The notes under the pieces: model-generated
What the model saw: the letters and a program-made list of their open reading frames with translations, nothing else
Told to the model about the DNA's origin: nothing
Database searches by the model: none
NCBI GenBank assembly: GCA_043734785.1
Contig: JAYTEX010000175.1
Span: 704-64,703, forward strand
Source: Pseudomonadota bacterium
Lineage (GTDB): Bacteria; Pseudomonadota; Gammaproteobacteria; Ga0077536
Direction: 5' to 3'
DNA length: 64,000 nucleotides
Made by a program: the position numbers and the translations under genes
In this document: positions 6,553-36,820 of the stretch, piece by piece
Numbering within the stretch: position 1 is the stretch's first letter
Layout: each line of letters begins with the position of its first letter

Positions 6553-6670
6553 GCTCGTATGCCTCGGAAAGTGGTTTAATTCGCGGTGAACGCCATCCAC
6601 CGCAATGACGGTGCTGGTCATGTGGGGCGCTGCGTGGGAAACCAGCAACACCGCCACTGATTAATCTCCA

Positions 6671-17122: not shown

Positions 17123-17136
17123 CTCGAGGAGAATCC

Positions 17137-18627: not shown

Positions 18628-18630
18628 GCC

Positions 18631-19740: not shown

Positions 19741-19791
19741 CGTCAATCGCTAGAGGGCACGGCAATTAATAACATCTTAAGGGGAGTAGTC

Positions 19792-20730: not shown

Positions 20731-20863
20731 CTGCGTCATCCCGGACGGAGCCGCGTAGCGGCGCAGGTCCGGGATCCAGGGGCATTTAAGGCTCAGGATG
20801 GACCCCGGATAAACGCCGCGCGTTTTCCGGGATGTCGGGGTTGATGCGTTCACGCGTTGATCA

Positions 20864-21916: not shown

Positions 21917-22060
21917 GACGTCACATGGATCGCACAAGCCGCATGCGGATACCTCGAATTTTCAGTTGAACGGCGGGGCCTCGGCTTTCTTCTTGGTGCC
22001 CTGTTTGTGCTTGATAGTTACGCTTGACATATATAGGTGTACGGAGAATGATGGCTTTCG

Positions 22061-22345
22061 ATGGCAATCAAAACGTGGGCTTGTAACAGAACGGAATTGA
22101 TATTCAACGGCGGTAGTCCCGATATTGTTCCTCGCACCCTGTTGAAGCGAGCGCACGGGAAGCTTCTTATGCTGCATGCCGCAGTGGATTTGCGTGATTT
22201 ACGGGTACCCTCGGCGAATTGCCTTGAGAAGCTCCACGGCGACCGCGCCGGGCAATACAGCATCCGGATCAACAACCAATACCGGGTTTGTTTTTCGTGG
22301 CGCGGCGGCGATGCCTACCAAGTTGAAATCGCGGACTATCACTGA
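22061..22345 (+). CDS. higB: type II toxin HigB (RelE/ParE superfamily, plasmid-maintenance-system killer)
   Basis: ...GQYSIRINNQYRVCFSWRGGDAYQVEIADYH is the hallmark HigB C-terminus. The toxin precedes the antitoxin, which is the HigBA order. Confidence 0.85.
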   Translation: MAIKTWACNRTELIFNGGSPDIVPRTLLKRAHGKLLMLHAAVDLRDLRVPSANCLEKLHGDRAGQYSIRINNQYRVCFSWRGGDAYQVEIADYH

Positions 22346-22357
22346 GGAACTGATACC

Positions 22358-22648
22358 ATGCGCGCGCCCATCCATCCCGGCAAAATTCTTAAAACTGAAT
22401 TTTTGGACGAACTCGGACTCACCGCTTATGCGCTGGCCAAGGCGCTTCGCGTGCCCGCGAACCGTGTCACCGGGATCGTCAATGGTGATCGTGGCATCAC
22501 GGCGGATACCGCGCTGCGCTTGTCCCGGTACTTTGGCACGAGTCCGGAATTCTGGCTGAACCTTCAAGCGCACTACGATCTTTCCGTCGCCAAGCGGACT
22601 CTCGGCCAGAAGATCGAGCGGGAAGTGCCCGTCATGACGGCGGCGTAG
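22358..22648 (+). CDS. higA: type II antitoxin HigA (XRE-family HTH)
   Basis: HPGKILKTEFLDELGLTAYALAKALRVPANRVTGIVNGDRGITADTALRLSRYFGTSPEFWLNLQAHYDL matches the HigA/VapI HTH family. Confidence 0.85.
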   Translation: MRAPIHPGKILKTEFLDELGLTAYALAKALRVPANRVTGIVNGDRGITADTALRLSRYFGTSPEFWLNLQAHYDLSVAKRTLGQKIEREVPVMTAA

Positions 22649-22747
22649 GTACCTCACGCCGCACTCCGGTGATACCCTCTGTGAGCACGAAGCCAATGCC
22701 ATCGAACTTGCGAACTTGCCGCGTTGGCCGGATGCCGGCACAAAAGC

Positions 22748-23527
22748 TCACAGACTTGCCGTATGCCCGCCGTCCACCGTCATCAGGTTGCCATTCATAT
22801 AGCGTGACGCATCCGAGGCCAGGTAAATGAGCGCGCCATCCAGCTCCGAAGGCTCGCCGAAACGCTGGGCCGGGATCCGACTGCGTAGTCGCTCGCCAGC
22901 CGGTGTCTGCAACCATTCATCGTTCATCTCGGTCGTGAAATAGCCGGGCGCCAAGGCATTCACGCGAATGCCAGAAGACGCCAGATCCACGCACAAGTCG
23001 CGGCCCAGATTGATCAAGCCCGCCTTCGCAGCGGAGTAAGGCGCAAGATGCCCGATCGCGCGGATGCCAAGAACAGACGCGATATTGATGATGCTCGCGC
23101 CGCGCTTATCGGCCAACCGGCGCTTGATCACTTCTTGTGCGAGAACCCAGGGGCCACGCAGATTGGTCTCATACACCGTGTCCCACTGCTCGTCCGTGAG
23201 CTTCTGCGGCGCTTTCGGGATCGCAATACCAGCGTTGTTGACCAGCACATCGATCGGCGCAATCGCTTCAACCGCCGCCACGCAGGCGCGAATATTCTCG
23301 CGCTCGCGCACGTCCAACGCATAAACCTCGCAGCGCCCGCCCTCCGCACGCAACTCCACTGCCAGCGCTTCCAGCTTGGAAGTCCCGCGCGAACATAGCG
23401 CGACTCGCGCACCTGCCCTGGTCAAGGTGCGGGCAAAATGGCGGCCAAGGCCGCTGGACGCACCGGTGACCAGAATATGTTTGGCGGACAGATCGAACAC
23501 TGAAGTCAAAAACGTTTTCGGATCCAT
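22748..23527 (-). CDS. SDR-family short-chain dehydrogenase/reductase
   Basis: It has VTGASSGLGRHFARTL (the TGxxxGxG motif) and the YxxxK catalytic region YSAAKAG. Confidence 0.85.
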   Translation of the reverse strand: MDPKTFLTSVFDLSAKHILVTGASSGLGRHFARTLTRAGARVALCSRGTSKLEALAVELRAEGGRCEVYALDVRERENIRACVAAVEAIAPIDVLVNNAGIAIPKAPQKLTDEQWDTVYETNLRGPWVLAQEVIKRRLADKRGASIINIASVLGIRAIGHLAPYSAAKAGLINLGRDLCVDLASSGIRVNALAPGYFTTEMNDEWLQTPAGERLRSRIPAQRFGEPSELDGALIYLASDASRYMNGNLMTVDGGHTASL

Positions 23528-23555
23528 GGATTCCCTCGTGTATGCAAACCTAATT

Positions 23556-24045
23556 TAGTCGTCCCTGATCCGCCGAGTGACCGCGTCGTCGCGAATCTGA
23601 GTATCCGCGCGAGCGGGTCTACTCACTGTTGAGCTTCGCAAGCTCACCCCAACCTACCCGATCGGGTCAAGCTCACCCCAACAACCCGATCGGGTTTCGT
23701 GTCTGCGCGCGATTTTGCAAGCTTTCGCCCCGCTCAGCGGGCAGCGTGTTCAAGGTAGGTTGGGGTGAGCGCCGCGAACCCCAACATCCATTATTCGCCG
23801 AATCACCGCGTCGTCGCGAATCTGAGTATCCGCGCGTGCGGGTCTACTCACTGTTGGGCTTCGCAAGCTCACCCCAACCTACCCGATCGGGTCAAGCTCA
23901 CCCCAACAACCCGCTCGGGTTTCGTGTCTGCGCGCGATTTTGCAAGCTTTCGCTGCTCAACCCACAAATCTTCCAAAATCATCTCGCCACAATGCGAGCA
24001 GTTCCCTATTTCCACCGCGCAGAATGCTTTTTTCAGGGACGACTA
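23556..24045 (+). mobile_element. MITE-like element, copy 3 (dimeric/internally duplicated), with TIRs TAGTCGTCCCTGA...TCAGGGACGACTA
   Basis: The ends are at 23556 and 24045. It contains two tandem copies of the roughly 190-bp internal unit, each with 2 x 29-bp subrepeats. It lies 28 bp upstream of the SDR start codon. Confidence 0.75.
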
Positions 24046-24054
24046 ATTTAAACC

Positions 24055-24165
24055 TAGAAACCGAAGTTGACCGTTTAGAGATGTGAGCCAGCGTATGACT
24101 GGATTGAGGGTTGTCGTTCAAACCTGCGTCACTTTAGGGTGACCGTCGCTACGCGATGCGCCGAT
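24055..24165 (+). repeat. conserved non-coding element copy A (about 85% identical to 31797..31900), containing a short ORF MTGLRVVVQTCVTLG
   Basis: By-eye alignment: tagaaacc...gtgagc..gcgtatg.ctggattg.g.gt.gtcgttcaaa.ctgcgtcac.tta.gggtga.cg.cgctacgc is shared with the copy upstream of the LLM gene at 31916. Confidence 0.6.
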
Positions 24166-24228
24166 TAACTGAAATCTCTAGGATAATCGCTCCGGGCTTT
24201 CCAGGAAGACGGAATGAAATCGGCCCGC

Positions 24229-25503
24229 TCAACGCGCGCCAGTATTTAGCGCGCTAGGTTCAAAATCCTTCTGATCAACCCCTTTCGGATTGGTGATGGT
24301 GACCATCTGCAAGGTCGTGCAGTGTTTGTTCTGCAGATCGATGGCCGCAGAAGAATCCAGCATCGGCACCCCACTGCCCTTATTTTCAGCCAGATGATAA
24401 TCCGGGTGCGCCACGCCAGCCATCAGCAACTTCCAGAGCACCCCACCGCGGTCGTAGACCTTGCTGAAGATCGGCATGCTGGTTTGCGCATCCACATAGA
24501 AAACACGCTTGGATAACGGATGATCATCGCGCCGCGGCTTGCCTTCGAGAATATAGGCACGGCGTAACTGCCAGGTCACCTTCGGGAAACAACCGGATTG
24601 GCCGGTGAAATCGACAAAGTGGTAATCGTAGTGCCGCGCCTTGCGGGGGGAATGTTCAAGCAGATCGTGCCGGTACATCGGCAGCAGAATATAGGTAGCA
24701 CCGCGGAACGACCATTCCATGTCTTTCAAACGTCCGGAGTAGCCTAGAAAATCTTCGATCATGAGGTCGCTACCCAGGAAGGAATCGGTGCGCGCGGTGG
24801 TCGCCACTCGACGCACTCGGCGCAGATTCGGCACGTACATCCAACCCTGTTCCTCGGCGTTGTCATCACTGTTGTAGTAAATGAGTAGCTTGGTGCCTTC
24901 GACATCGGTCGGATCTTCTGCTTCCAAGGTGATAGCGCTGTAGATGGCGTAGGGGTTCCTTTCGAATGCGGGGAGCGGTTCGTTCACATGCCGGAACATG
25001 TACCGCATGCCCTGCGCATTGAAGGTCAAGGTGCGTTCTATGCTCTGGCTGTGCATGTCGCGATAGTCCCAATACATCTCAGGAATCGTCACACTGTCCG
25101 CGCCAAAGGCATAGCGCATGTTCCAGGCGAGGCGCTCGCCGGCACGCGGATCATCAACGCTCAATTCGCCCGGAAACGGTCGCCCGGCGGTGTAGTTCAA
25201 GATCTCACTAGGCTTCGAGCCAAGCGTCGTCTGGCCCTCATACTGCTGGGTCGCGGTCACAAAATTCGGATGCGGATCGAAGGACAGCGGCTCACCGACG
25301 GTGATGGTGTACCAGCCTTGCGCGATGAGATCCGCCAAGTCTGGATCGAGCACCTGCCGATACTGATCCAGACCTTCGGCGCTGATCACGGTGCCAGGCG
25401 GCGGCGAAAGCTCCTGGATTTGGACGAGATCAAGATCGAAATCGCCTGCCAGCGCCGGGATCGTCAACGCCACAAGCATCAAACCGGAAATGAGGTGGAC
25501 CAT
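24229..25503 (-). CDS. DUF1329-family periplasmic protein (paralogue 1), with signal peptide
   Basis: It has a signal peptide MVHLISGLMLVALTIPALA and NYTAGRPFPG and YVPNLRRVRRV...DSFLGSDLMIEDF motifs. These are shared with the paralogue at 27619..28995 (NYTAGRPFDP, YIPSLRRVRRISV...DSLLGTDHTLEDF) and are characteristic of DUF1329. Confidence 0.75.
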   Translation of the reverse strand: MVHLISGLMLVALTIPALAGDFDLDLVQIQELSPPPGTVISAEGLDQYRQVLDPDLADLIAQGWYTITVGEPLSFDPHPNFVTATQQYEGQTTLGSKPSEILNYTAGRPFPGELSVDDPRAGERLAWNMRYAFGADSVTIPEMYWDYRDMHSQSIERTLTFNAQGMRYMFRHVNEPLPAFERNPYAIYSAITLEAEDPTDVEGTKLLIYYNSDDNAEEQGWMYVPNLRRVRRVATTARTDSFLGSDLMIEDFLGYSGRLKDMEWSFRGATYILLPMYRHDLLEHSPRKARHYDYHFVDFTGQSGCFPKVTWQLRRAYILEGKPRRDDHPLSKRVFYVDAQTSMPIFSKVYDRGGVLWKLLMAGVAHPDYHLAENKGSGVPMLDSSAAIDLQNKHCTTLQMVTITNPKGVDQKDFEPSALNTGAR

Positions 25504-25623
25504 GTTGGACCGGGATCGGGAGGAAGAACTTAAGGCCATGGATGAATTTTCTCTTCTGAATTGCCACGTCGCTGCGTCAACGAGGGAGAGTCGACCATTC
25601 GCGCGCAGCGCCACCTCCAGACG

Positions 25624-26244
25624 TTACAACGCCAGCGAGGACAATGAATAAAACTTTTTAATCGCAGGCAAGGCCAAGGTCAAGGACGCCATCATCAGCG
25701 AATGCATCGGGCGCCCTTGTTCAATACATTGCAGAAAATCCTGCACATCGACGAGTTCAACTTCAAGATCTTCGTAGGTGTCCAGTTTGGGTTCGGCCAC
25801 CTTACGACAACCCGTGCCCAGAAACACATGCATCCGGTTGTCTTGTAACCCGGGGTTCGGATAGTGGTGGCCGAGGTAGGTCAGCCGGCTCACGCCATAT
25901 CCCGTTTCTTCCATGAGTTCGCGGCGCGCCGCGCTCTCGGGGGTCTCATCTTTGTTCTCTGGGTCGAGCGTGCCACCGGGAAACTCGTAGAAGCGCCGTT
26001 TGGCGGCGTGACGGTATTGATTGACCAGCACAATCTTGCCGTCGTCCGTGAGTGCGACCACATTCGCCCAGTCGACGAACTCCATGACGTAGTACGCCGG
26101 CATGATCCGTTCGTTCGGAAGCGCGCAGCGATCTTTGCGGAAACGGAAATACGGATGGCTGAACAATTCGTCCGAACTCAAAACCTCCCAGGAGGTCAGG
26201 CGCTGTTTCGGATCTGGGGTATCAGTCATGGTGATCCTATACAA
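25624..26244 (-). CDS. NUDIX hydrolase
   Basis: It has the Nudix box GGTLDPENKDETPESAARRELMEETG. Confidence 0.8.
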   Translation of the reverse strand: MYRITMTDTPDPKQRLTSWEVLSSDELFSHPYFRFRKDRCALPNERIMPAYYVMEFVDWANVVALTDDGKIVLVNQYRHAAKRRFYEFPGGTLDPENKDETPESAARRELMEETGYGVSRLTYLGHHYPNPGLQDNRMHVFLGTGCRKVAEPKLDTYEDLEVELVDVQDFLQCIEQGRPMHSLMMASLTLALPAIKKFYSLSSLAL

Positions 26245-26277
26245 GGTTGTTCAGCAACGGGTTCTGCGCGGGCGAGA

Positions 26278-27435
26278 TCAGGTTTCAACACCACCGACGA
26301 AGTTTCCGTCCGCTGAGTGGATGATAGCCCATGCAGCCATGGTGCGAATCCCTGGGTTCTGATCTTTAAGGAAAGTGCTGAGTTCAGGCACGGTCGAGGC
26401 GTCGCGTCGGTGGCCTATTAGCCATAAGGTCTGCAGGCGAACATCGGCATCCGTGTGCGCCAGTCCCCACTGATAAAGAAACCCGGCATCCCCACCGTTC
26501 CAGCCCCAGGATTCAAGCAGTCGCGTCGCTGTATCAGCCGGCAACGGGCAGCAGGTAATCAGGGTTTTAGTCACCTCGCGCGCTACCGCGAGCGGCAGGC
26601 GCCGAATCGCGCCAGCCATGACCGTCGCCTCCAGCGGCTTGCCATACGCGATTACGTTAATGAGCTTGGCGATCGCCACGTCGTCCTTAAGACCCGCGCT
26701 GCTGGCGATGGCAGCCAGCTTTACTCTACCGTCGAGGTCCTCGCTCGCCATCTGCGTGAGCGCGGCTTTAGAGGCAGCCGTATCGATGTGGCCCAGGGAC
26801 GCCGCCGCGACTTCGCGTTCATCACTGGTCTCGCCTGCATGCGCGATTGCGATGACCTCGCGCCCTATTTCGGCGCCATGGCCGTTCGAGGCCAGGGCGT
26901 AATAACCATAGGCACGAACGGTGGGCATTTCTTGTGGATTATCGGTGATGCGATGGACCGCTGCGTTGACCTCGTCGGTGTCGATCGTCGAGAGGGCTTG
27001 CAATGCGTTCTTTCGGACGTAGGCCTTATCCGAGGACAGTGCCTCAATAAGCACATCTTCGAGATCCCCGCGCGGCGTCGCCGCAAGAGATTCGATCATC
27101 AGGGTCAAGGTCACGCTGTCCTGCTCGGCCACCCGCATGATCATATCGACCCCGTTCGGATGGTTCGTGCTGAGCAGGGTGTCGATCGCCGAGCGCTTGA
27201 TCACGAAATCATTCGATGCCGCATACTTGGCCAACAGATCTAACGCTGCTTTGTCGCCGGTCTCCACCAGCGCACCCGCCGCGAGGATCTGGTCGTACAC
27301 ATCCTCGGAGGTGAGCTGACTGCGCGCCACGCGGATCGCGTCGTGGAGGGCGGTATCCGTTGGCGGCCGCTCATTCGCGCGGAGCGATCCGCTGATCAAG
27401 ATGCTTAGAAGCAGGACTGCAGCGATTTTTTTCAT
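26278..27435 (-). CDS. HEAT/PBS-lyase-type repeat protein with N-terminal signal peptide
   Basis: It has a signal peptide MKKIAAVLLLSILISGSLRA. It is Ala/Leu/Asp-rich with a repetitive helical pattern (DxxVRxxAxxAL-like repeats). Confidence 0.7.
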   Translation of the reverse strand: MKKIAAVLLLSILISGSLRANERPPTDTALHDAIRVARSQLTSEDVYDQILAAGALVETGDKAALDLLAKYAASNDFVIKRSAIDTLLSTNHPNGVDMIMRVAEQDSVTLTLMIESLAATPRGDLEDVLIEALSSDKAYVRKNALQALSTIDTDEVNAAVHRITDNPQEMPTVRAYGYYALASNGHGAEIGREVIAIAHAGETSDEREVAAASLGHIDTAASKAALTQMASEDLDGRVKLAAIASSAGLKDDVAIAKLINVIAYGKPLEATVMAGAIRRLPLAVAREVTKTLITCCPLPADTATRLLESWGWNGGDAGFLYQWGLAHTDADVRLQTLWLIGHRRDASTVPELSTFLKDQNPGIRTMAAWAIIHSADGNFVGGVET

Positions 27436-27552
27436 AGCGGGTTTCCAGCAAATTAAAAGAATCTGTGCCCGTTAGAGCCCCTCTCGAGACACTCGTTCCC
27501 CCTGCCTAGTACCGTCACCGAGAAAGCCTTGCCTTTATGCACAGTAGGCTCC

Positions 27553-27581
27553 ATAAAAAACGGGCCGCTGATGCGGCCCGC
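27553..27581 (-). terminator. rho-independent terminator after the DUF1329 paralogue 2 gene
   Basis: On the minus strand, gcGGGCCGCatcaGCGGCCCGttttttatgg gives an 8-bp GC stem, a 4-nt loop and a T6 run. It is 38 nt past the stop. Confidence 0.7.
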
Positions 27582-27618
27582 CTATTAAACAACGCAATCT
27601 AGGTGAGGAGCAAACCGC

Positions 27619-28995
27619 TTAGCGGCCTTCCGTCAGATAGTTCACATCAAGGGTCTTCTTCACATCCTTCAGCTCGGTGTCGGGATTGGCGATTCCACGG
27701 CAGGGCACCAAGGTGCCGCGATTGTTCTGGAGGTCGATCACATTGATGCTCTGGAAGGAGCTAACCTTCAGACCATCCGGCGTTGGGACGCCGCCAAAGT
27801 CGCCCGTCGCTTGCGCCTTGAACTGCGGATCGTCGGTGAACGCCTTCGTCAACTGCCACACCTTCCACAGCACGTTGGCCTTGTCGTAGCTGTTGGCGTA
27901 ATAGCATTCACCCGATTCACGATCAGCCGTCAGGAACTTCTGCGAATATGGGTGGCTAGAACGTTTCGGCGTTTGCTTGATGATGTCCACTTTGCGCAGC
28001 GCCCAATCGTCCAGCGGGATCCAGCCATTCGGGCCGTAGTAGATCGTGTGCGTGTTGCGCGATCGGGCTACCGCCAGCATGTTGGCGGTCCCCACATATT
28101 CCCACTCGTGCTCTAGCGGGCGACCGTTGAAGCAATAAAAATCTTCAAGGGTGTGGTCCGTACCGAGTAGCGAGTCGGATTTCACTTCCACCGAGATACG
28201 GCGGACTCGACGCAGGCTTGGAATGTACGCCCAGGAATCGTCTGATTTGCGCGGATCATCATAGCGCAGGATGAGGAACGCGGTGCCGGCAATGTCGAAG
28301 GGTGCGGTGAAGCCCGTGTATTCACGGAATTCAGTGTTCTTGGCAAAGCCTTCGCCGTTGTTCACTTTATAACCGGTTTCCGGCAGGTCGGAACGATGTG
28401 AAAACATCACCCGCTGGTAGGGGCCGGTCAGCACACGCTCAAAGCTGCCACCGCCGGTATAGAACGACGCGTATTTACCGCCCTGGTCAGTCATGACGTC
28501 ATGACCTGAATGCTCGCCGCCTGCGCGGACCCACACCCAGTGTATTTCACCGACGCGTATGCCATCGTTTTGCCAGCGGAAATTAAAGTTCCACGCCATC
28601 TTCGAGCCGTCTTCCTTGCTGCCCGGCGTGAAAGTGGCCGGGTCAAATGGACGACCGGCGGTGTAGTTTTCCATGGCGCCGTCAGCAGCAATGGTGGCCT
28701 GACCCGCGAATTTTTCGGTCGCCGCTTTGTAGACGTCTGGCGGCGAAATGTCGCCCGCGTCCTTGATCTTCATGTCCATGCCTTCGAAGATCACTTGGTC
28801 GGCTAATTCGGGCGGAATGAAGGGGCGGATCAGATCAGCCTTATCGAAGGTGATGGTATCCCCATCAATAAACTGAGGGGTCGCGCCCTCGTTAGCCTTG
28901 ACCCAGGCCAGGAAGTCTTCAGGGGTCGCCGCGCCGGCCACCAGCGGTTGCGCGGCAATCGCGGCCATTACGGCGCAGCGGATAGATTTATGCAT
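27619..28995 (-). CDS. DUF1329-family periplasmic protein (paralogue 2), with signal peptide
   Basis: It has a signal peptide MHKSIRCAVMAAIAAQPLVAGAA and the family motifs listed for paralogue 1. Confidence 0.8.
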   Translation of the reverse strand: MHKSIRCAVMAAIAAQPLVAGAATPEDFLAWVKANEGATPQFIDGDTITFDKADLIRPFIPPELADQVIFEGMDMKIKDAGDISPPDVYKAATEKFAGQATIAADGAMENYTAGRPFDPATFTPGSKEDGSKMAWNFNFRWQNDGIRVGEIHWVWVRAGGEHSGHDVMTDQGGKYASFYTGGGSFERVLTGPYQRVMFSHRSDLPETGYKVNNGEGFAKNTEFREYTGFTAPFDIAGTAFLILRYDDPRKSDDSWAYIPSLRRVRRISVEVKSDSLLGTDHTLEDFYCFNGRPLEHEWEYVGTANMLAVARSRNTHTIYYGPNGWIPLDDWALRKVDIIKQTPKRSSHPYSQKFLTADRESGECYYANSYDKANVLWKVWQLTKAFTDDPQFKAQATGDFGGVPTPDGLKVSSFQSINVIDLQNNRGTLVPCRGIANPDTELKDVKKTLDVNYLTEGR

Positions 28996-29038
28996 AGTAA
29001 GCTCCTCGCTCTCTCCTAGCTATTGAGTGCCCCTCCAG

Positions 29039-29074
29039 CTGGAATAAGTTCCAGCTGGAGGGGCGCGTGATATA
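29039..29074 (-). other. perfect 16-bp stem hairpin (GCCCCTCCAGCTGGAA-taag-TTCCAGCTGGAGGGGC) between the DUF1302 and DUF1329 genes
   Basis: A perfect inverted repeat with a 4-nt loop and no U-run. It lies between the DUF1302 stop (29083) and the DUF1329 start (28995). Confidence 0.6.
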
Positions 29075-29082
29075 TCTCGTTC

Positions 29083-31353
29083 CTAGAACTGATACTTCAG
29101 TTGGAAAAATAACTCGTCGTTGTTACGCAGCGCACCGATGCCTTCGCGTGCCACACCGAATACCGATTGCTGCGCAAAAGTGTCATTGCCACTGCCTTTG
29201 CCGCCCTGGATGGGTACCACAAATGTGGAGAACGGACCGGAATCATGCCGGAAGTTCTCGTTGCCACCCCAAATGGTGTGGAGACCACCCTTGATGGACC
29301 AGTGGTTATCAATCTTCCACTCGGTGTTGAAGCCGGCCACCCAGGAGTTTGAGGCCTCTTCCCACACCAGGAAGCCGATCGGGGTCACCCGATCGCGCAT
29401 GTAGTTGGCGATGAAGAAGAAGGTGGCGATGAAGTTGTGCTCATCGGTATAGAAACCGGTGTGCTTGTCCCCTTCATGATCGATGTACCAAGTGTCGAAG
29501 AGCTGGGTAGACAGGAAGAAGGTCCGGTTCTTGTTCAGCCATTTGATCCAGGTGGGACGGTCAATACCGATCGACCAACGCATCACGTCGCTTTCATCTA
29601 CCCAGTTAGCCTTGCGCGTGTTGTTCACGAGCTCGTCCAGGGTAATCGAAGATTCGACGCGAAGTACGGTGCCGGTAAGGCTTTCGAAGTAGTCGAAAGA
29701 CATGCCGGTGGTATTCGAACGCTTGTACTGGATGTCTGTCTGGCCGCCGAGCACTGAAAAGTTCTGAGCTCCGCCTGTCCAGAAAAGGCTCGCATCATTT
29801 TGCGCAATGGCCTGTCGTGCCAAGGCTCCGCCCGCCGTATTGTTCTGGGCGATCGTATTGATTGCGTCCTGGGGATCCATCACTCGAATGGGGATATTCC
29901 CCTGGGCTGGATTCGCCCGCATTTCTGCCAGACCGAAGATCAACGCGTCATTGGCGGCGCCCACGTTTCCGTTAAATCCGCTGACAGCATTCACGTTCAC
30001 ACTGTGGAAACGGAAGATCGGAGTGTCCTGATAACCGTTGTAGTTCGTAAATGCAAAATGCACTTCACTCAAACGAAACTCCCAACGGACGCCGCCTTCA
30101 GTGTGGTCAAAGGACCAATCCGGGCGATCTTCCAGATTCAACCCGACGGGCTGGCCGAAACCAGACGGCAAACGGGGATCGTTCGGACCTTGGGCGCCGC
30201 AGATATCGGCTGCCGTAACACCAGGTAGATTAACCGAGTTCACCCCTAAGCAAGGTTCCACCGAGAAGAACGTATTGAACGCCGCGAAGGTCGATTTTTC
30301 CTTGGCGAACGGATGTGCCCAACCGGCGCCCGGATTGCCTAAGCCGACCGGTTCGAACTGATCGAAGTTCCACAGGAACTGGATCGCGTTGTCGGTGGTC
30401 GGGCCTAGGTCACCAAACTTCCATTGCGCCGAAGCCATCCATTGCGGGATGCGGATGTCCTCAAAGGAGTCAAAGAAGAAATGCTGGCCGAAATCGACCG
30501 GATTAACGATATCTTGCAGACGGAAGAAGTCCGTCTTCCCCCACACGATTTGCTGCTTGCCGACGCGGAACCACCAGTCGCCCACCGTCGCGTCCGCGTA
30601 GAGTTCGCGAAACGGATAGATGCGGCGGTTGGAGTCCGTGTTGTTCATCGCAACGTCCAACGGATCGTTATCGACATTCAAACAGCGCGTGCAGTCGAGT
30701 TCCATGCCACTCGTGACGGACACGACCGGGAAGCCCGATTGGCCGGCACCGCCAGGGTTAAACGCGGTGGCTGTACTGAATTTCGAGCCATTTGCCGCTC
30801 GACCGAAAATGGCCTCGAAATTTCCCGACAACCAAGCCTCGTTCTGCAGTCCCTGGGTCACAATCTTCGAGATACCGCCAGTACTGAATTGTGCGTGGCC
30901 GTCAGACGCCGTCACACCGGTTGAGCCCAGCAGATAGTCAAAGCCACCAAACCCAACCGGATCGTTCTGAAAGTTGAAGGTGTTCCCGAGGTAGGAAGGC
31001 TTAGTGCCCCCGCGACCCCGATCGCCACTTAAGGAATCACCATAGTAATAAGCGGCATCGAATTCGGGCCGCACCACAGTGACGAACGATAAGGTATCGA
31101 ACACACCAACATCCGTGTAATTCGCGGACGCCTCGATCTGGAGGCGTTGAATCCACTGATTCAGGTACTGATCGCCATTACCGACGGTCGCGCGTGCCTC
31201 ACTCGAAATGAACCCGTTAATTTCAACTTCACCACCAAGCGCATCGATCGTGATACGCGCTTCCGCCGGCGTGCTCACCACGAGCGCCGAGGTCAACGCG
31301 TAAGCGCCAATTGATAGAGCGCGTAAAGTGCGTTTCATCGCGTTATCTCCCAT
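29083..31353 (-). CDS. DUF1302-family outer-membrane beta-barrel protein (756 aa), with signal peptide
   Basis: It has a signal peptide MKRTLRALSIGAYALTSALVVSTPAEA, alternating beta-strand-like composition rich in G/N/F/Y/W/D, and a C-terminal ...FQLKYQF (OMP-type terminal Phe). Its size and context with DUF1329 are typical. Confidence 0.8.
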   Translation of the reverse strand: MGDNAMKRTLRALSIGAYALTSALVVSTPAEARITIDALGGEVEINGFISSEARATVGNGDQYLNQWIQRLQIEASANYTDVGVFDTLSFVTVVRPEFDAAYYYGDSLSGDRGRGGTKPSYLGNTFNFQNDPVGFGGFDYLLGSTGVTASDGHAQFSTGGISKIVTQGLQNEAWLSGNFEAIFGRAANGSKFSTATAFNPGGAGQSGFPVVSVTSGMELDCTRCLNVDNDPLDVAMNNTDSNRRIYPFRELYADATVGDWWFRVGKQQIVWGKTDFFRLQDIVNPVDFGQHFFFDSFEDIRIPQWMASAQWKFGDLGPTTDNAIQFLWNFDQFEPVGLGNPGAGWAHPFAKEKSTFAAFNTFFSVEPCLGVNSVNLPGVTAADICGAQGPNDPRLPSGFGQPVGLNLEDRPDWSFDHTEGGVRWEFRLSEVHFAFTNYNGYQDTPIFRFHSVNVNAVSGFNGNVGAANDALIFGLAEMRANPAQGNIPIRVMDPQDAINTIAQNNTAGGALARQAIAQNDASLFWTGGAQNFSVLGGQTDIQYKRSNTTGMSFDYFESLTGTVLRVESSITLDELVNNTRKANWVDESDVMRWSIGIDRPTWIKWLNKNRTFFLSTQLFDTWYIDHEGDKHTGFYTDEHNFIATFFFIANYMRDRVTPIGFLVWEEASNSWVAGFNTEWKIDNHWSIKGGLHTIWGGNENFRHDSGPFSTFVVPIQGGKGSGNDTFAQQSVFGVAREGIGALRNNDELFFQLKYQF

Positions 31354-31796
31354 AGTTTCCCCCTTCTATAACGCAGTGACCGGCCTCTCCGAGCCCAAGT
31401 CGCTGCAATCTCTCACCATTAATATGGATCGACCCTCGTGGCGAGGCTGACGAAATCGGTTGCGATCCCTCATCCCCTGCGCCGGTCGTTGGTCTCGAAT
31501 TCCTGCGTGCGCGTCGTCATCACGAACCGGCACTTTCCCCCAGCCGGTCGGTTTCTGCGCATTGCCATGCACTCGGGCATGGCCTGACGAGCCTTCGGTT
31601 GCGGGTGAGTTTGCCATAGGTGTTGTATCCGGTAAACATTTTTTTCAATATCTCGCCCCTTCTACTCGATTTAGTGGTGACTTTCCAACTTTCCTACCCT
31701 TTTTCACGTTGGCGCCGTGTCCTTATTCGTCTTCCGCGTTCAGTGCGGAACACCTGTACTCGGTTGCGGGAAGTGCGCGATGATTAGGCGTGAGCG

Positions 31797-31900
31797 TAGA
31801 AACCTCAGTTTGAGAACGTGAGCGCGCGTATGGCTGGATTGGCGTGGGTCGTTCAAATCTGCGTCACGTTATGGGTGAGCGCCGCTACGCCGCGTGTTCA
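31797..31900 (+). repeat. conserved non-coding element copy B, immediately upstream of the LLM monooxygenase gene
   Basis: See copy A. It sits within the 518-bp divergent intergenic region between DUF1302 (minus strand) and the LLM gene (plus strand). Confidence 0.6.
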
Positions 31901-31919
31901 ACGGGGGTTTTTAGGTTGA
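31830..31919 (+). CDS. possible leader peptide / uORF (29 aa, MAGLAWVVQICVTLWVSAATPRVQRGFLG) whose stop TGA overlaps the TTG start of the LLM gene (TTGA)
   Basis: The peptide is partially conserved in copy A (MTGLRVVVQTCVTLG). It is speculative. Confidence 0.25.
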   Translation: MAGLAWVVQICVTLWVSAATPRVQRGFLG

Positions 31920-33304
31920 TAGAGATTGGTGTGTTCCACAACGGGGCGAGCGACCTGCCCCCTATCCGCACCGCGGATGGCACGGTCTGCAATGACGGCT
32001 CACTCGCCGAAGTGCATGCTGCGGCACAACGCACCATCGTCAATCAAATCCGCCAAGGCATCCTCGCGGATACCTTGGGCTTCGATTACTGGTTCCAGAC
32101 CGAGCACCATTTCCAGCCGGAAGGCGCGGAGATGAGTCCGAATCCACTGGCCAGCGAAATGGCCATCGCGGCCAACACTCGCCATATCCGGCTCGGCCAG
32201 GCGGCCAACATCATCACCTGGCATCACCCCGTGCGGCTGGCGGAGATGGCGGCGATGCTGGATGTCGTGAGCGGTGGCCGAGTAGAGGTGGGGGTGGGTC
32301 GCGGCTATCAGCCTCGCGAGAACGAAGTGCTAGGCAAGCCTTACGGCTCAACCATTCAAGATCAAGAACGAAACCGGGTCGCGTTTGCCGAGGCACTGGA
32401 TATTCTCATCAAGTGCTGGACAGAGCCCTCGTTCTCCCATCGCGATGAATTTTTCTCGATTCCGCCCCGCTACACGAAATGGAACCACAAGCAGACGATC
32501 GCCTATTTCGGCATGGACAAAGTCGAGCGCAGAGTGGACGAAATCCTGAAGCTCGGCGGCCCAGACATGTATTCCGCCGGCAATCCCGTGCTTGCGACCA
32601 CCACCACGCTGAAAGAAATCAGCGTGTTTCCACAACCGCTGCAAAAACCCTACCCGCAATTGTGGGAACCGCTGACCAGCCCACGCTCCATCCATTTTGC
32701 GGCGGAAAAAGGCGTAAATGGGTATTTCATTATCGAACCCACCCCGCGCCTCAAACAGAACGTGGAACTGTATTACGAAGCGGCGGAGCAAGCCGGCTGG
32801 CCCGATCGATTAAATCGCGGCCGATTCAAGTATGGCTGGGACGCCGAGAAGCGCCGCGGCATCGTGACCTGCCGCTACATTCATCTGCTGCTGCCAGGAA
32901 TGAAGCGTGAGCCCGAGCTTGCGCGCTTCAAACTGGCGCTGGAAGTGCAATGGGACTATTACGGGCCGTTTGGCTTTGCCGCCCTGCTGGCCGCGACCGG
33001 CGATGAGTTTCTCGACCTGCGCACGAAGATCCAACCCGAATCGCTGCTGCAGAAAGAAGTCGCCTTGTTCGGCACGCCGGACGAAGTCGTGGCGCAAATC
33101 ATGCGCATCAAGGAAGACGTGGGGTATGAAGACTTCATGTTTCATTGCTGGTTCGAGCTGGCCGGCTTCAAGGGACCGGAAATCGAAGACCAGATGCGCT
33201 ACTTCGCCGAGACCTGCATGCCACTCCTGCACCGCGCCTGCGGCGGGCGACCGCCACGCCGCGAGGCCTTCGAAGTGCCGTCCTTTGATGATGTGCGGCG
33301 CTGA
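31916..33304 (+). CDS. LLM-class flavin-dependent monooxygenase (large, about 460 aa)
   Basis: It has the bacterial luciferase-family N-terminus LIEIGVFHNG..., a flavin-site-like middle region, and a C-terminal GTPDEVVAQIMRIKEDVGYEDFM. It is followed by a flavin reductase. The start is ambiguous: TTG 31916, or in-frame ATG 31871 or 31844. Confidence 0.75.
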   Translation: MIEIGVFHNGASDLPPIRTADGTVCNDGSLAEVHAAAQRTIVNQIRQGILADTLGFDYWFQTEHHFQPEGAEMSPNPLASEMAIAANTRHIRLGQAANIITWHHPVRLAEMAAMLDVVSGGRVEVGVGRGYQPRENEVLGKPYGSTIQDQERNRVAFAEALDILIKCWTEPSFSHRDEFFSIPPRYTKWNHKQTIAYFGMDKVERRVDEILKLGGPDMYSAGNPVLATTTTLKEISVFPQPLQKPYPQLWEPLTSPRSIHFAAEKGVNGYFIIEPTPRLKQNVELYYEAAEQAGWPDRLNRGRFKYGWDAEKRRGIVTCRYIHLLLPGMKREPELARFKLALEVQWDYYGPFGFAALLAATGDEFLDLRTKIQPESLLQKEVALFGTPDEVVAQIMRIKEDVGYEDFMFHCWFELAGFKGPEIEDQMRYFAETCMPLLHRACGGRPPRREAFEVPSFDDVRR

Positions 33305-33460
33305 AGCGGAAGGGTAAGACTGCGCCGGCAACAACGGCGTGGGGGCTGGAAACGCATGGCGACCTGACTGACTGAAAAGCCCCGCCGCTGCAGAGGCTAG
33401 CCAGTGGCGCCAAGGGGACTCACAATACGCGCTGCCATTCCCCTTAATGAAAGCGCATCG

Positions 33461-33949
33461 ATGACTGAACTTACGCCAGAATATTTCCGCAAGGCTTGTG
33501 GCTACTGGGCCACCGGCGTTTCCATCGTGACCACTCGCGATGTCGATGAAACCCCCTATGGATTGACCATGAACGCGGTCACCTCTTTGTCGCTGACGCC
33601 GGCATTGTTCATTGTCTGTGTGGACAATAAGTCGGACACCTTGGAGCCCATGAAGCGCAGCGGTGTGTTCTGCATCAATGTGCTCAGCGCCGGTCAGCAG
33701 GATTTATCGAACAATTTCTCCAAAAAAAGTCCCAATAAGTTCGAGGGCGTAGGTTTCGAGCGCGGCAGCACGGGCTCGCCCATGTTGGATGGCCGCCTGA
33801 TGGCGATCGATTGCCAGGTAACGGCGGTGCACCCCGGTGGGGACCATCATATTTTTGTCGGCGAAGTCCGCGCTGTCACCTTCCCGGATTCCGACGCGAT
33901 CGAACCGCTGCTCTATTACCGCGGACGCTACACAGGGATCTTGCCCTGA
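33461..33949 (+). CDS. NAD(P)H-flavin reductase (HpaC/flavin-reductase-like domain), partner of the monooxygenase
   Basis: It has the flavin-reductase-like fold signature (YWATGVSIVTTRD...YGLTMNAVTSLSLTPALFIVCV...F..V.F), is about 160 aa, and lies downstream of the LLM gene. Confidence 0.75.
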   Translation: MTELTPEYFRKACGYWATGVSIVTTRDVDETPYGLTMNAVTSLSLTPALFIVCVDNKSDTLEPMKRSGVFCINVLSAGQQDLSNNFSKKSPNKFEGVGFERGSTGSPMLDGRLMAIDCQVTAVHPGGDHHIFVGEVRAVTFPDSDAIEPLLYYRGRYTGILP

Positions 33950-34134
33950 AATTCGCCATTGCGGCGCCCAATAATCCTGGCCAAAAAACGGGGGTTTACT
34001 TGTACCCGCGCCATGCTTATTGGTATGTTACGCGGCCGCAAAACGCGGGTTGGCGGTAATTTTGAGCACGCATTTTTGCGCGGTCCCGCCTGCTCACAGC
34101 ATTCATCATTCATCATCCTGCAGGGCAATGACCC

Positions 34135-35367
34135 ATGACTATTGATCGCAATCGGCTACTCGGCACGCTGGCATTCACCGCCTCAATCGGCCTCGGCGCC
34201 GCACACGCGGCGGACGAAGCGCTGGTCGATCAACGTGCCCCGCTCGTGATCGATTTCCTCGATGGCGCCTACGTGTCCGGGGCAGGCGGCATCGTGGTGA
34301 CTGGCGCACACGGCCTTCTGGGGCTCTTGAAAATGAACGGCCAGGGCGCGGAATTCACCCGCTACCCAAACATTCCGAACGAAGATTTCACGGCACTGGA
34401 ACGCTGGTCAGACACTGAAGTTCTGCTCGGCACGTCTGACGGTAAGGTCTATCTGTTCGACGGCAAGACGGCGACGGAAGTCGGGAAAATTTCCGAGTTC
34501 AACGAACCAGTCCTCGATATCGCGGCCGCGAATGGCACCGCTTGGGCCGTCGGCGGCCGCGGGATGCTCGCGAATACAAAGGACGGTAAAACCTGGTCAC
34601 CGGTCGAAATCCCCGAAGTGACACAGCCGCAAATGACCTTCCCGGGCACCGAACCGGGCGAATGGTACTTCGGGGTCAGCAACTTGAAGATGGACAGCCT
34701 GGTGCTCAACGCTACGGTGGGTGGCAAACCCGTCGTGCTCGATACCGATTACACCCTGTACCCAGATGAAGGCTTCATCCAGTTCATTACGACGTTGGAT
34801 ACGGCCCCGCCGCCCACCATCGACTTCAAGTTTGCCCCTGGGCCAGCCTTTCGCCCAGGCGACGTGTCATGGAACGTGGCGCTGTTCGACGGCACCAAGC
34901 TCACCATCGCCGGTGAGTTCGGCATGATTCTGCAAACCACTGACGGTGGCCAGAATTGGATCCGGCGTGATTCGCTCCTCACGCCCCTAGAGCCCGAACC
35001 GCCGTACTGGATCGCGGGCACGCAGAAGGGTTCGAATATTTACCTAGCCGGTGCGGCAGGGGTAATGCGAGCGAGCACCGATGGCGGCGCGACCTGGGCT
35101 CAATTGCCGGCGCCGAGTGCCGAGGGCGTGTTCGGCGTCGCTGTCACGAGTGCCGGCCAGCCGGCAGTGGCGGGCGCGGTGGGTCTTATTGGCATTCTGA
35201 ACGGTCCCGAATGGACCATCGCTGATCGCAGCGAGCTGCAGCTCTTGTCCTGGATCAGAACCCCGGTGGAGATGCCGGATGGGAGGCTGGTGATGTTGGG
35301 TGGGCGCGCGACAGTCATCGCTTTTAAGGATGGCAAATGGGCCCGTGTTCCCGTCGCTTTCAAATAA
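34135..35367 (+). CDS. Ycf48-like / BNR-repeat beta-propeller protein with signal peptide
   Basis: It has a signal peptide (MTIDRNRLLGTLAFTASIGLGAAHA) and repeated motifs of the form S.DGG.TW (TKDGKTWSPV, TTDGGQNWIRR, STDGGATWAQL) typical of BNR/Ycf48-like propellers. It is a co-conserved partner of DUF1302/DUF1329 clusters. Confidence 0.7.
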   Translation: MTIDRNRLLGTLAFTASIGLGAAHAADEALVDQRAPLVIDFLDGAYVSGAGGIVVTGAHGLLGLLKMNGQGAEFTRYPNIPNEDFTALERWSDTEVLLGTSDGKVYLFDGKTATEVGKISEFNEPVLDIAAANGTAWAVGGRGMLANTKDGKTWSPVEIPEVTQPQMTFPGTEPGEWYFGVSNLKMDSLVLNATVGGKPVVLDTDYTLYPDEGFIQFITTLDTAPPPTIDFKFAPGPAFRPGDVSWNVALFDGTKLTIAGEFGMILQTTDGGQNWIRRDSLLTPLEPEPPYWIAGTQKGSNIYLAGAAGVMRASTDGGATWAQLPAPSAEGVFGVAVTSAGQPAVAGAVGLIGILNGPEWTIADRSELQLLSWIRTPVEMPDGRLVMLGGRATVIAFKDGKWARVPVAFK

Positions 35368-35416
35368 GCGGGCGTCGTCGCTATCGTCGCCTACCATGGC
35401 GGGAGAGTTGGGTCAG

Positions 35417-35995
35417 CTACACCTCGGCCTGGCGGAAGCAACTCACCAAGTGATCGTTCACCATGCCCGTTGCCTGCAGGTGGGCATACATGACGGTGGA
35501 GCCCAGGAACTTGAATCCACGCCGCTTCAGATCTTTGGCCAGTGAGTCCGACTCTGCTGAGGTGGCGACGACGTCTGCCATCGTACGTGGACGATTGACT
35601 CGCGGTTGGCCGTTCACGAATGCCCAGAGGTAATGCTCGAAGCGGCCGAACTCCGCTTGCACTTCGAGAAAACAGCGGGCATTGGAAATAGCCGCTGAGA
35701 TTTTGGCTCGATTGCGGATAATGTTCGGGTTATTCATCAGCGCTTCGATGTGGTGCGTATCGAAGCAGGCGACTTTTTCCGGCTCGAAATTCGCGAAGGC
35801 TGCGCGATAGCCCTGCCGTTTGCGCAACACCGTGAGCCAGCTCAAACCCGCTTGCGCGGCTTCAAGGGTCAGGAATTCGAACAGGATGCGATCGTCGTGG
35901 ACTGGCACGCCCCACTCCGCATCGTGATAGGCGATCATTTCAGGCTTGTCGCCAGCCCATGCGCAACGACTGATCGGTGCCATGCTGCTGCTCAT
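35417..35995 (-). CDS. tag: DNA-3-methyladenine glycosylase I
   Basis: It has YHDAEWGVP, FEFLTLEAAQAGLSW, the Zn-site Cys/His pattern, and GMVNDH. Confidence 0.85.
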   Translation of the reverse strand: MSSSMAPISRCAWAGDKPEMIAYHDAEWGVPVHDDRILFEFLTLEAAQAGLSWLTVLRKRQGYRAAFANFEPEKVACFDTHHIEALMNNPNIIRNRAKISAAISNARCFLEVQAEFGRFEHYLWAFVNGQPRVNRPRTMADVVATSAESDSLAKDLKRRGFKFLGSTVMYAHLQATGMVNDHLVSCFRQAEV

Positions 35996-36028
35996 GAGAA
36001 AATGATCTCCACCGGTCTCAACGTTCGC

Positions 36029-36799
36029 TCAGCGCGGCGGCAATCGACTGGCCGCATCGAGACGAATGCATTCGCCATTAAGATACGAATTCTCGACGAT
36101 GTGTGCGGCCAGCTTGGCGTATTCGCTCGGCATGCCAAAGCGCTTCGGGTATTCGAGCTGTGCTTCGATGCCAGCGCGGATCTTATCCGATAGCCCTTTG
36201 ACCATCGGGGTTTCGAACAGGCCCGGCGCGATGGTCATGCAACGAATGCCGTCTCGTGCCAAATCGCGCGCGATTGGCAACGTCATGCTCACCACGCCCC
36301 CCTTGCTTGCGGCATACGCGGCCTGCCCGGTTTGCCCGTCGTAGGCCGCGATAGAGGCCGTATTGATGATCACGCCGCGCTCGCCACTCGCGCCTTCGGG
36401 GGCGTTCTTGGTCATCTCGAGCGCTGCAAGCCGCAGCACGTTGAAGGTGCCGATCAGGTTGATATTGATGATCCTGACATAGTGATCGAGCGCATGAGGC
36501 TCCCCGCGACTGACCGTCTTGGCCGCCGTGCCGATGCCTGCACAGTTGATGCAGATATGCACCGCGCCGAAGCGGGTCATCACCTGGGTCAGCGCGGCTT
36601 TGACCTCCGCCTCGCTGGTGACGTCCACCCGGCAATACATTGCATTGGCCCCAATCCTGCTCGCCGCCACCTGGCCCAAGTCGTCATTAAGATCGAATAG
36701 CGCGACTTTGGCGCCCGCCGCCGCGAAGGCCTCGGCGCTCGCCTGCCCCAGACCCGACGCGCCGCCGGTGATCACGGCTACTTTCCCGTTGATTTGCAT
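36029..36799 (-). CDS. SDR-family 3-hydroxyacyl-CoA dehydrogenase-like (HSD17B10-type)
   Basis: It has VAVITGGASGLG and a YAASKGG catalytic motif. It is adjacent to a thiolase. Confidence 0.8.
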   Translation of the reverse strand: MQINGKVAVITGGASGLGQASAEAFAAAGAKVALFDLNDDLGQVAASRIGANAMYCRVDVTSEAEVKAALTQVMTRFGAVHICINCAGIGTAAKTVSRGEPHALDHYVRIININLIGTFNVLRLAALEMTKNAPEGASGERGVIINTASIAAYDGQTGQAAYAASKGGVVSMTLPIARDLARDGIRCMTIAPGLFETPMVKGLSDKIRAGIEAQLEYPKRFGMPSEYAKLAAHIVENSYLNGECIRLDAASRLPPR

Positions 36800-36820
36800 G
36801 GTGTGCTCTCGCTCGCAAAA

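Follow-up and report, generated by a model that had tools for sequence, protein, structure and literature searches.

Introduction

The DUF1302 and DUF1329 protein families are widespread and conserved, and to our knowledge neither has an established mechanism or a solved structure. Here we analyze a locus that combines both families with an exported HEAT-repeat protein, found in a 64,000-nucleotide stretch of DNA (hereafter the window) from a Pseudomonadota bacterium (GCA_043734785.1, contig JAYTEX010000175.1). The closest described system is AmeABCD of Castellaniella defragrans, which consists of a DUF1302 protein, a DUF1329 protein, a COG4447 BNR protein and an HAE3 RND permease, and is required for growth on monoterpene hydrocarbons (PMC6394551). 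The mutants fail on the hydrocarbons and grow on their oxygenated derivatives, and AmeABCD was read as an efflux and tolerance system (PMC6394551). Cofitness links the four families in Shewanella, Kangiella and Pseudomonas, with the cluster split in P. stutzeri; Price et al. proposed that a cell-wall component is exported, and the phenotypes are pleiotropic (10.1101/072470). In P. putida, growth on Tween 20 and butyl stearate requires PP_0765/6 as well as the distant PP_2018/9, and the genes are needed for hydrophobic esters and not for free fatty acids (10.1101/2020.07.04.188060). Complexes of DUF1302 with DUF1329, and of DUF1329 with BNR and RND, have been predicted by AlphaFold-Multimer and point to a shuttle model (PMC10866462; PMC13499233).

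Measured against AmeABCD, the window has the barrel, an adjacent DUF1329 protein and the BNR protein, and no HAE3/MMPL permease in the same cassette within its 64 kb. The region is one lineage's copy of a locus conserved in dozens of uncultured Gammaproteobacteria. The cluster is a variant of the known system that belongs to an undescribed HEAT-containing subfamily, and not a wholly new system. On balance, we favor reading it as a lineage-specific, pump-less copy of a conserved AmeABCD-like envelope locus for very hydrophobic compounds, situated in an island for CoA-dependent degradation.

Results

Gene content of the envelope locus

Domains were assigned by Pfam and NCBIfam scans of a six-frame listing of open reading frames (ORFs), and all Pfam matches reported here lie above the gathering score. 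Five genes lie on the minus strand. The first gene of this envelope operon encodes a DUF1302 outer-membrane beta-barrel of 751 aa (29083-31338). It is followed by DUF1329 paralogue a (DUF1329a, LolA-like, 458 aa, 27619-28995), an exported HEAT-repeat alpha-solenoid (HEAT, 385 aa, 26278-27435), a cytoplasmic NUDIX hydrolase of the ADP-ribose/ADP-sugar pyrophosphatase type (201 aa, 25624-26229), and DUF1329 paralogue b (DUF1329b, LolA-like, 436 aa, 24229-25539). Beyond a divergent intergenic region of 577 nt (31339-31915), the plus strand carries an accessory gene for a luciferase-like FMN-dependent monooxygenase (LLM) of the LuxA or type II Baeyer-Villiger kind (462 aa, 31916-33304), an NAD(P)H:flavin reductase gene (162 aa, 33461-33949), and the gene of a periplasmic Ycf48-like BNR beta-propeller (410 aa, 34135-35367). 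N-terminal segments resembling signal peptides are seen in the translations of DUF1302, both DUF1329 proteins, HEAT and BNR; inspection of the NUDIX, LLM and flavin reductase translations revealed none.

All eight domain families (8/8) that an original prediction, made by a model from the letters alone, had named in this region were recovered by Pfam (DUF1302, DUF1329 twice, HEAT, NUDIX, LLM, flavin reductase and BNR), and the predicted divergent layout of the envelope genes and the LLM, reductase and BNR genes was also found. The two DUF1329 paralogues indeed share the NYTAGRPF and Y(V/I)PxLRRVRR motifs, the latter as Y(I/V)P(S/N)LRRVRR, and are 28% identical over ~455 aligned columns. The prediction had let the cluster start at 24055. 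Its first 174 nt are non-coding and the starts of DUF1302, DUF1329b, NUDIX, LLM and flavin reductase required small corrections; the gene content was right. As scanned, the ORFs spanned 24229-25614 (DUF1329b), 25624-26244 (NUDIX), 29083-31353 (DUF1302), 31844-33304 (LLM) and 33404-33949 (flavin reductase). The corrected starts of all but LLM are those of gene calls on identical contigs, which derive from lake-type metagenomes. The LLM start was set at the TTG at 31916, because the consensus of the orthologue alignment opens with MIEIGVFHNG. A promoter and terminator scan of 22000-36200 returned no more sites than shuffled sequence, and the operon boundaries are therefore based on gene spacing alone. 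Across the whole window, there were no Rfam matches at gathering thresholds and none from a tRNA scan.

The locus is conserved in uncultured Gammaproteobacteria

One genome per GTDB species was scanned with the HEAT alignment, which yielded 46 loci, all in metagenome-assembled genomes (MAGs). The window proteins, together with an MMPL protein and an esterase from relatives, were mapped onto them. Nearly all carriers are labelled uncultured Gammaproteobacteria or Pseudomonadota, from fresh and marine waters, and the most distant locus (26% HEAT identity) is labelled Myxococcota. Some of the MAG records (among L011, L012, L017, L019 and L026) are titled 'Klebsiella pneumoniae', 'uncultured Klebsiella sp.' or 'Hydrogenophaga intermedia', which are probably mislabels at the level of submission. 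HEAT is flanked by DUF1302 and DUF1329 in 43 of the 46 loci, and the surrounding catabolic genes are the same. The shared architecture reads thiolase, (SDR), Tag glycosylase, BNR<, flavin reductase<, [LLM<] in the first arm; [MMPL>], DUF1302>, [DUF1329a>], HEAT>, [NUDIX>], DUF1329b>, [esterase>] in the envelope part; and SDR>, MaoC<, [cyclase<], CoA-transferase<, ALDH<, ACAD< in the second arm, where genes in square brackets belong to some species only (SDR, short-chain dehydrogenase/reductase; ALDH, aldehyde dehydrogenase; ACAD, acyl-CoA dehydrogenase).

An exported HEAT-repeat protein accompanies one DUF1302 subfamily

The HEAT protein (HEAT_2, E 2e-25) has 96 homologues of ~385 aa at 29-96% identity. 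An exhaustive profile search of 1.8 billion proteins gave ~45 full-length cluster representatives and otherwise generic giant HEAT-repeat proteins only. An export signal is present on 24 of 27 orthologues. The AlphaFold2 (AF2) model (pLDDT 91) is a solenoid of 23 helices, and its nearest folds are the bilin lyase CpcE, alphaRep proteins and YibA. In forming an alpha-solenoid of HEAT_2 repeats, the protein resembles the PBS (phycobilisome)-lyase-type HEAT-like proteins. A bilin lyase (CpcE, CpcF, NblB) was considered and rejected: the NCBIfam scores are 18-28 bits against cut-offs of 220-330, and the protein is exported.

As a second anchor, metagenomes were scanned with the DUF1302 alignment and the genes were then mapped on the matching loci. 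Where DUF1302 is at least 43% identical to that of the window, a HEAT_2 gene lies downstream, even when HEAT identity falls to 25-28% (L069, L071, L074). Where DUF1302 is at most 37% identical, the loci show the canonical order BNR-MMPL-DUF1302-DUF1329, often with two DUF1329 genes and without HEAT; one has a TPR protein instead. A HEAT paralogue is also found at a second site, paired with a DUF1329a-like gene and without a barrel, in a genome that has the main locus as well (L049, JBHIYN010000001.1). Another genome with the main locus carries an orphan HEAT paralogue beside hydantoinase/amidase genes (L044, OZ244981.1, 1.07 Mb). Our literature search found no mention of DUF1329 together with HEAT repeats. 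HEAT appears to be a new, conserved add-on of one DUF1302 subfamily, and its most likely role is that of a periplasmic adaptor or scaffold for the DUF1329 carrier or carriers.

The pump gene is missing from the window and from a minority of relatives

Consistent with the original prediction, Pfam and NCBIfam scans detected no MMPL gene in the 64-kb window. The sole RND gene there is an unrelated AcrB-type pump gene with its adaptor (52362-55463). A tblastn search (E<10) of the window and of all MMPL-less loci with the MMPL protein of a relative found no remnant, the best E in the window being 5.9. In 20 of the 35 readable loci, an MMPL/HAE3 RND gene of ~800 aa lies directly upstream of DUF1302, between it and LLM or flavin reductase (L006, L007, L008, L013, L035 and L060, among others), that is, at the position of the divergent intergenic region of the window. 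These proteins match Pfam MMPL, and their PDB relatives are MmpL4/5 and HpnN. The gene is absent from the other 15, window included, with junction gaps of 167-1071 nt.

The losses fall in at least four separate places on the HEAT tree. Close relatives differ, with MMPL present in L035 and L060 and absent from L009 and the window; strain variants of the locus at 96-97% nucleotide identity (L145-L149) also lack it, as does an entire sub-clade of ~10 species. All MMPL-less loci that extend far enough still have BNR and flavin reductase. Because relatives with 72-86% HEAT identity (L008, L035, L060) have MMPL in place, the window holds a derived form that lost the pump gene and not a system built without one.

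Of the nearest MMPL homologues, P0189, P0100, P0113 and P0130, all from other samples, were examined in context. P0100, P0113 and P0130 are stand-alone genes whose products are 73-81% identical to the in-cluster MMPL proteins, and stand-alone and in-cluster genes interleave in the MMPL tree. On chromosome OZ257136.1, P0130 is found at 3.82 Mb and an MMPL-less HEAT locus at 1.57 Mb. P0130 was considered as the relocated original gene. Its placement in the tree is wrong for this, and we describe it as a stand-alone member of the same subfamily, which may be a paralogue or a transferred gene. At L058/L059 (GCA_001468985.1, GCA_022843415.1), a stand-alone MMPL gene, with 81% identity to the pumps inside clusters, neighbors Mg-chelatase (BchI/D-like) and carotenoid genes, so that some members of the lineage may be aerobic anoxygenic phototrophs. 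Since BNR is retained and related genomes have stand-alone MMPL genes of this subfamily, the MMPL of the window genome is most likely encoded at another site.

The monooxygenase and the NUDIX hydrolase are gained and lost together

PF00296 (Bac_luciferase) matches the LLM with 119.5 bits (E 3e-34), over the N-terminal third of the ORF only, and its NCBIfam scores stay below every subfamily cut-off. AF2 models the protein as a TIM barrel (pTM 0.83). The best Foldseek matches are RslO1, LuxA and 3,6-diketocamphane monooxygenase (E 1e-20 to 1e-14), with ~20% identity to characterized enzymes. A LadA-type alkane hydroxylase was rejected, as LadA ranked well below the group of LuxA and the Baeyer-Villiger enzymes in the fold search. 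LLM-type Baeyer-Villiger enzymes act in catabolism, e.g. on progesterone (PMC12239570). Orthologues 65% identical to the window LLM occur in Actinobacteria (Pseudonocardia, Mycobacterium). In Mycobacterium lentiflavum (L061), the gene is found with a MimR-type regulator, an alcohol dehydrogenase, an aldehyde dehydrogenase, a metallo-beta-lactamase-type (MBL) hydrolase, RibBA and a flavin reductase. In Pseudonocardia sp. T1-2H (L062), it directly follows a four-gene operon for a soluble di-iron monooxygenase of the propane/acetone type. These contexts hint at the oxidation of small or methyl ketones.

The flavin reductase gene (Flavin_Reduct, E 4e-45) begins 156 nt downstream of LLM, and the best NCBIfam match of its product is HsaB-like (152 bits, cut-off 230). 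A steroid pathway suggested by this match was rejected, as the score is below the cut-off and no other steroid-specific gene reaches an equivalog score. The reductase is not exclusive to LLM, because it is also present in loci that lack LLM. Together, LLM and flavin reductase would form an optional two-component monooxygenase of the LuxA or type II Baeyer-Villiger kind, an activity predicted from fold and gene order.

The NUDIX protein matches PF00293 (62 bits, E 7e-17) and carries the catalytic REx2EE motif as RRELMEETG. In the PDB, it matches ADP-ribose pyrophosphatases (ADPRases) over residues 19-194, with that of M. tuberculosis (1mk1) at E 3e-19, and further NudF, T. thermophilus Ndx2 and a B. 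methanolicus activator protein. The protein has the Nudix fold and box and the N-terminal dimerization domain of the ADPRase branch. NDPSase_N is listed as a weak match in a precomputed annotation. None of the equivalogs NudE, NudF and YffH is reached, the best being NudE with 51 bits against a cut-off of 169.

LLM is present in 11 of the 34 loci in which both insertion points are readable. Both LLM and NUDIX occur in 11 of these loci, neither in 20, NUDIX alone in 3 and LLM alone in none (Fisher p ~1e-6, uncorrected for phylogeny). The NUDIX insertion point lies between HEAT and DUF1329b, so the two genes enter at different points, and on the HEAT tree they show at least five joint changes of state. 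Since NUDIX co-varies with LLM, it is not a random insertion. This joint gain and loss, as deduced from gene presence, appears to be new. FAD is a further substrate of T. thermophilus Ndx2. This and the RibBA neighbor in Mycobacterium suggest a speculative role of NUDIX in flavin supply.

Barrel, carriers and propeller

In the DUF1302 protein, PF06980 (83 bits, cut-off 23.2, E 3e-23) covers residues 239-756, the C-terminal two thirds. Orthologues at 47-88% identity occur in 40 related loci. A strain variant (L145, ERZ28573538 scaffold_65179) shows 96% nucleotide similarity to window positions 31034-35304, and this similarity ends at 31034. The first ~250 residues of its DUF1302 protein are just 63% identical to the window protein, and these two observations indicate a recombination breakpoint inside the barrel gene.

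Both carriers match PF07044 (cut-off 23.1), DUF1329a with 126 bits (E 3e-36) and DUF1329b with 197 bits (E 6e-58), as well as LolA_like (E 3e-16 and 2e-20, respectively). DUF1329b is the universal copy, present in 44 loci. DUF1329a is an accessory copy, present in 23 loci and confined to one sub-clade. In the relative L025, DUF1329a is duplicated in tandem (6305-9253), and in L060 (4277-5877) it is broken into ORFs of 264 and 235 aa, probably by a frameshift. The BNR protein reaches 34.3 bits with PSII_BNR (cut-off 27) and matches Ycf48 entries of the PDB over residues 242-388 (E 2e-8). It is 21-39% identical to the products of the BNR genes that precede MMPL in distant canonical cassettes. 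BNR and flavin reductase are adjacent and present in every readable locus.

Flanking catabolic genes and repeats

A catabolic arm at 15929-23527 encodes an acyl-CoA dehydrogenase, an aldehyde dehydrogenase, a family III CoA-transferase, a cyclase-family protein, a two-domain MaoC hydratase and an SDR (Pfam/NCBIfam), and most relatives have the same genes in the same order beside the envelope operon. The other arm, on the minus strand at 35417-38002, encodes a 3-methyladenine glycosylase, an SDR and a thiolase (Pfam) and is kept next to BNR in relatives. Together, the flanks hold two thiolases and two SDRs, plus the acyl-CoA dehydrogenase, aldehyde dehydrogenase, CoA-transferase, MaoC hydratase and cyclase-family protein. 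The predicted CoA-dependent, lipid-type catabolic neighborhood is thus borne out by the domain matches.

In most relatives, DUF1329b is followed by a gene for a cytoplasmic esterase of the hormone-sensitive lipase (HSL) type, with HGGG and GDSAG motifs and no signal peptide. At this position, the window has a repeat of ~500 nt (23551-24050) that resembles miniature inverted-repeat transposable elements (MITEs) or repetitive extragenic palindromes (REPs), and no esterase remnant was found there. The element ends in 18-nt inverted repeats and contains two 167-nt direct copies that are 95% identical, as well as internal palindromes; related copies of it lie at 1201-1540 and 11079-11362. A 140-aa ORF inside it (23629-24051) is probably not a gene. 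A 73-nt motif occurs at 31818-31890 and 24083-24154 on the same strand with 82% identity, bracketing the five-gene envelope operon. No further copy was found in the window or in the loci of other species, and RNA folding of both copies on both strands gave no stability above shuffles. It may be a recombination scar. Upstream in the window, a second oxygenase/ester-type set (4403-8902) comprises genes for a fatty-acid hydroxylase-family protein and an acyl-CoA dehydrogenase, together with a second full-length LLM (6671-7810) and, at 8066-8902, an alpha/beta hydrolase.

Discussion

A model of the locus

In the reading that we favor, that of a pump-less copy of an AmeABCD-like locus, the DUF1302 barrel would form the outer-membrane passage and the LolA-like DUF1329 proteins would ferry hydrophobic cargo across the periplasm, as the literature on these families suggests. 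DUF1329 would dock on the barrel on one side and on an inner-membrane complex of the BNR propeller and MMPL (HAE3 RND) on the other, and the HEAT solenoid, encoded between barrel and carrier, would serve DUF1329 as an adaptor or scaffold. In the window genome, the MMPL and the cytoplasmic esterase genes would both have been deleted from the locus, and the pump would most likely come from elsewhere in the genome, in the manner of Pseudomonas putida with PP_0765/6 and PP_2018/9. The cytoplasmic target of LLM and the flavin reductase would be a carbonyl intermediate. NUDIX would be inherited along with LLM as its partner, perhaps as a pyrophosphatase that acts on flavin (FAD to FMN) or on an ADP moiety. 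Both the substrate and the direction of transport are inferred only.

A bolder version, which we consider tentative and rather doubtful, makes HEAT a fifth subunit that loads or docks DUF1329 at DUF1302, lets the two carriers work without a pump, and takes NUDIX as a dedicated helper of LLM. Such a helper would, for instance, supply FMN from FAD or remove an inhibitory ADP-containing adduct. We know of no described Nudix-flavoenzyme partnership of this kind.

Several points weigh against the favored reading. RND and MMPL pumps are exporters, which is awkward for an uptake role in a catabolic island. The MMPL gene of the window genome is placed at another site by inference and was not seen, and P0130, the stand-alone MMPL of the L039 genome, branches apart from the in-cluster MMPLs of its nearest relatives in the tree. 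The concentration of MMPL loss in loci with two DUF1329 genes would also fit a pump-independent mode. Furthermore, the association of LLM with NUDIX carries no correction for phylogeny, and every carrier genome is an uncultured MAG.

The pump-independent mode supposes that the barrel, two DUF1329 proteins and HEAT suffice for passive capture and delivery, so that MMPL was dispensable and lost. We regard it as unlikely, if the least unlikely of the three alternatives considered here. It would account for the absence of MMPL without a remnant in 15 of the 35 readable loci, for a whole sub-clade of ~10 species that has no MMPL in the locus, and for the presence of DUF1329a in 13/15 MMPL-less versus 4/20 MMPL-positive loci. 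This last association, however, is confounded by phylogeny, as one clade supplies most cases. Moreover, BNR, which elsewhere goes with the RND pump both in gene order and in cofitness, is kept in all MMPL-less loci; stand-alone MMPLs of the same subfamily exist, one of them in a genome with a pump-less locus; and clusters that are split and yet dependent on RND are known in Pseudomonas.

A device for efflux or envelope biogenesis, exporting a lipid or envelope component or toxic hydrophobes while the catabolic neighbors are merely co-regulated under solvent stress, seems to us somewhat less probable still. The relationship of the relatives' MMPL to the lipid exporters MmpL4/5 and HpnN speaks for it, as do the cell-wall export proposed on the basis of cofitness, with its pleiotropic phenotypes (10.1101/072470), and the interpretation of AmeABCD as an efflux and tolerance system (PMC6394551). 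However, the growth pattern of the AmeABCD mutants fits substrate handling equally well as tolerance (PMC6394551), the P. putida genes are required on hydrophobic esters and not on free fatty acids (10.1101/2020.07.04.188060), and the same CoA-dependent catabolic genes surround the envelope operon in ~45 species. Chance juxtaposition, in which the unit of LLM, flavin reductase and BNR is unrelated to the envelope operon and HEAT and NUDIX are passengers, is very improbable. It can draw on the presence of LLM in just 11 of 34 readable loci, on the 65%-identical LLMs of Actinobacteria in contexts without envelope genes, and on the cytoplasmic nature of NUDIX among exported operon neighbors. Against this, all readable loci have flavin reductase and BNR side by side, and LLM and NUDIX come and go together at two insertion points. 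For HEAT, chance is largely refuted, since its position between DUF1302 and DUF1329 is held down to 25-28% HEAT identity, and the DUF1329-HEAT pair recurs at a second site.

The original prediction had presented the cluster as an unusual and undescribed system. This holds for the HEAT-containing subfamily; the locus itself is conserved, has MMPL in 20 of 35 relatives, and is split in a way known from Pseudomonas. The prediction had conceded that the same gene order, if common with an MMPL gene just outside, would make the cluster an ordinary member of the known family. This turned out to be partly so, with the gene inside the orthologous loci of 20 of the 35 readable species. The neighborhood comparison that it proposed placed HEAT between DUF1302 and DUF1329 in 43 of 46 loci. 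HEAT and NUDIX, described there as inserted, do lie in conserved neighborhoods, but HEAT is a standing component and NUDIX follows LLM. The oxygenase is no fixed part of the system, as LLM is found in 11 of 34 loci only, whereas flavin reductase and BNR are found in all; nor are two DUF1329 paralogues an unusual trait, since such pairs are frequent in this locus family.

DUF1302 and DUF1329 matter phenotypically in Pseudomonas, Shewanella and terpene degraders. The locus family offers natural experiments, with the pump in or out, one carrier or two, and HEAT present or absent, on which complex prediction and reconstitution could build. That LLM and NUDIX are gained and lost as a pair is a testable lead on an orphan LLM family whose members in Gammaproteobacteria and Actinobacteria share 65% identity.

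Comparison with known systems

Like AmeABCD, the window combines the DUF1302, DUF1329 and BNR families inside a catabolic island for hydrophobic compounds, and the loci of its relatives include an HAE3/MMPL pump. Unlike AmeABCD, the window has no pump gene and has in addition the exported HEAT and the cytoplasmic NUDIX proteins. The gene order also differs, being MMPL-DUF1302-(DUF1329a)-HEAT-(NUDIX)-DUF1329b in the relatives, with BNR divergent beside the flavin reductase. The window DUF1302 protein is ~150 aa longer than AmeA, and the BNR protein is ~95 aa longer than AmeC. The Shewanella amazonensis genes Sama_1588-1591 and the canonical cassettes of metagenomes (L075-L135) contain the same four families, often with tandem DUF1329 genes. 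They differ from the window in having no detectable HEAT, and their DUF1302 proteins are 23-37% identical.

In Pseudomonas putida (PP_0765/PP_0766 and PP_2018/PP_2019) and P. stutzeri RCH2, as in the window, the barrel and carrier lie apart from the RND pump, by fatty-acid and CoA genes (PMC10866462). However, BNR travels with the pump in Pseudomonas and stays at the barrel locus in the window, and the Pseudomonas pair has an adjacent LuxR-type regulator and no HEAT, NUDIX or LLM. The splitting of barrel and carrier from BNR and pump is thus already documented in Pseudomonas, and the absence of MMPL from the window cluster is therefore largely explained.

The LLM resembles the type II Baeyer-Villiger monooxygenases (BVMOs), namely 3,6-diketocamphane monooxygenase (4uwm), RslO1 (7bip) and the progesterone LLM of Caenibius tardaugens (PMC12239570), in its TIM barrel, adjacent flavin reductase and catabolic setting, and the HSL-type esterase of most relatives is a further likeness to type II BVMO settings. 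It differs from them in showing ~20% identity, in being ~120 aa longer with poorly modelled insertions, and in belonging to a highly conserved family of its own. Unlike CpcE/CpcF and YibA, the PBS-lyase HEAT-like proteins, the HEAT protein of the window is exported and has no phycobilisome context.

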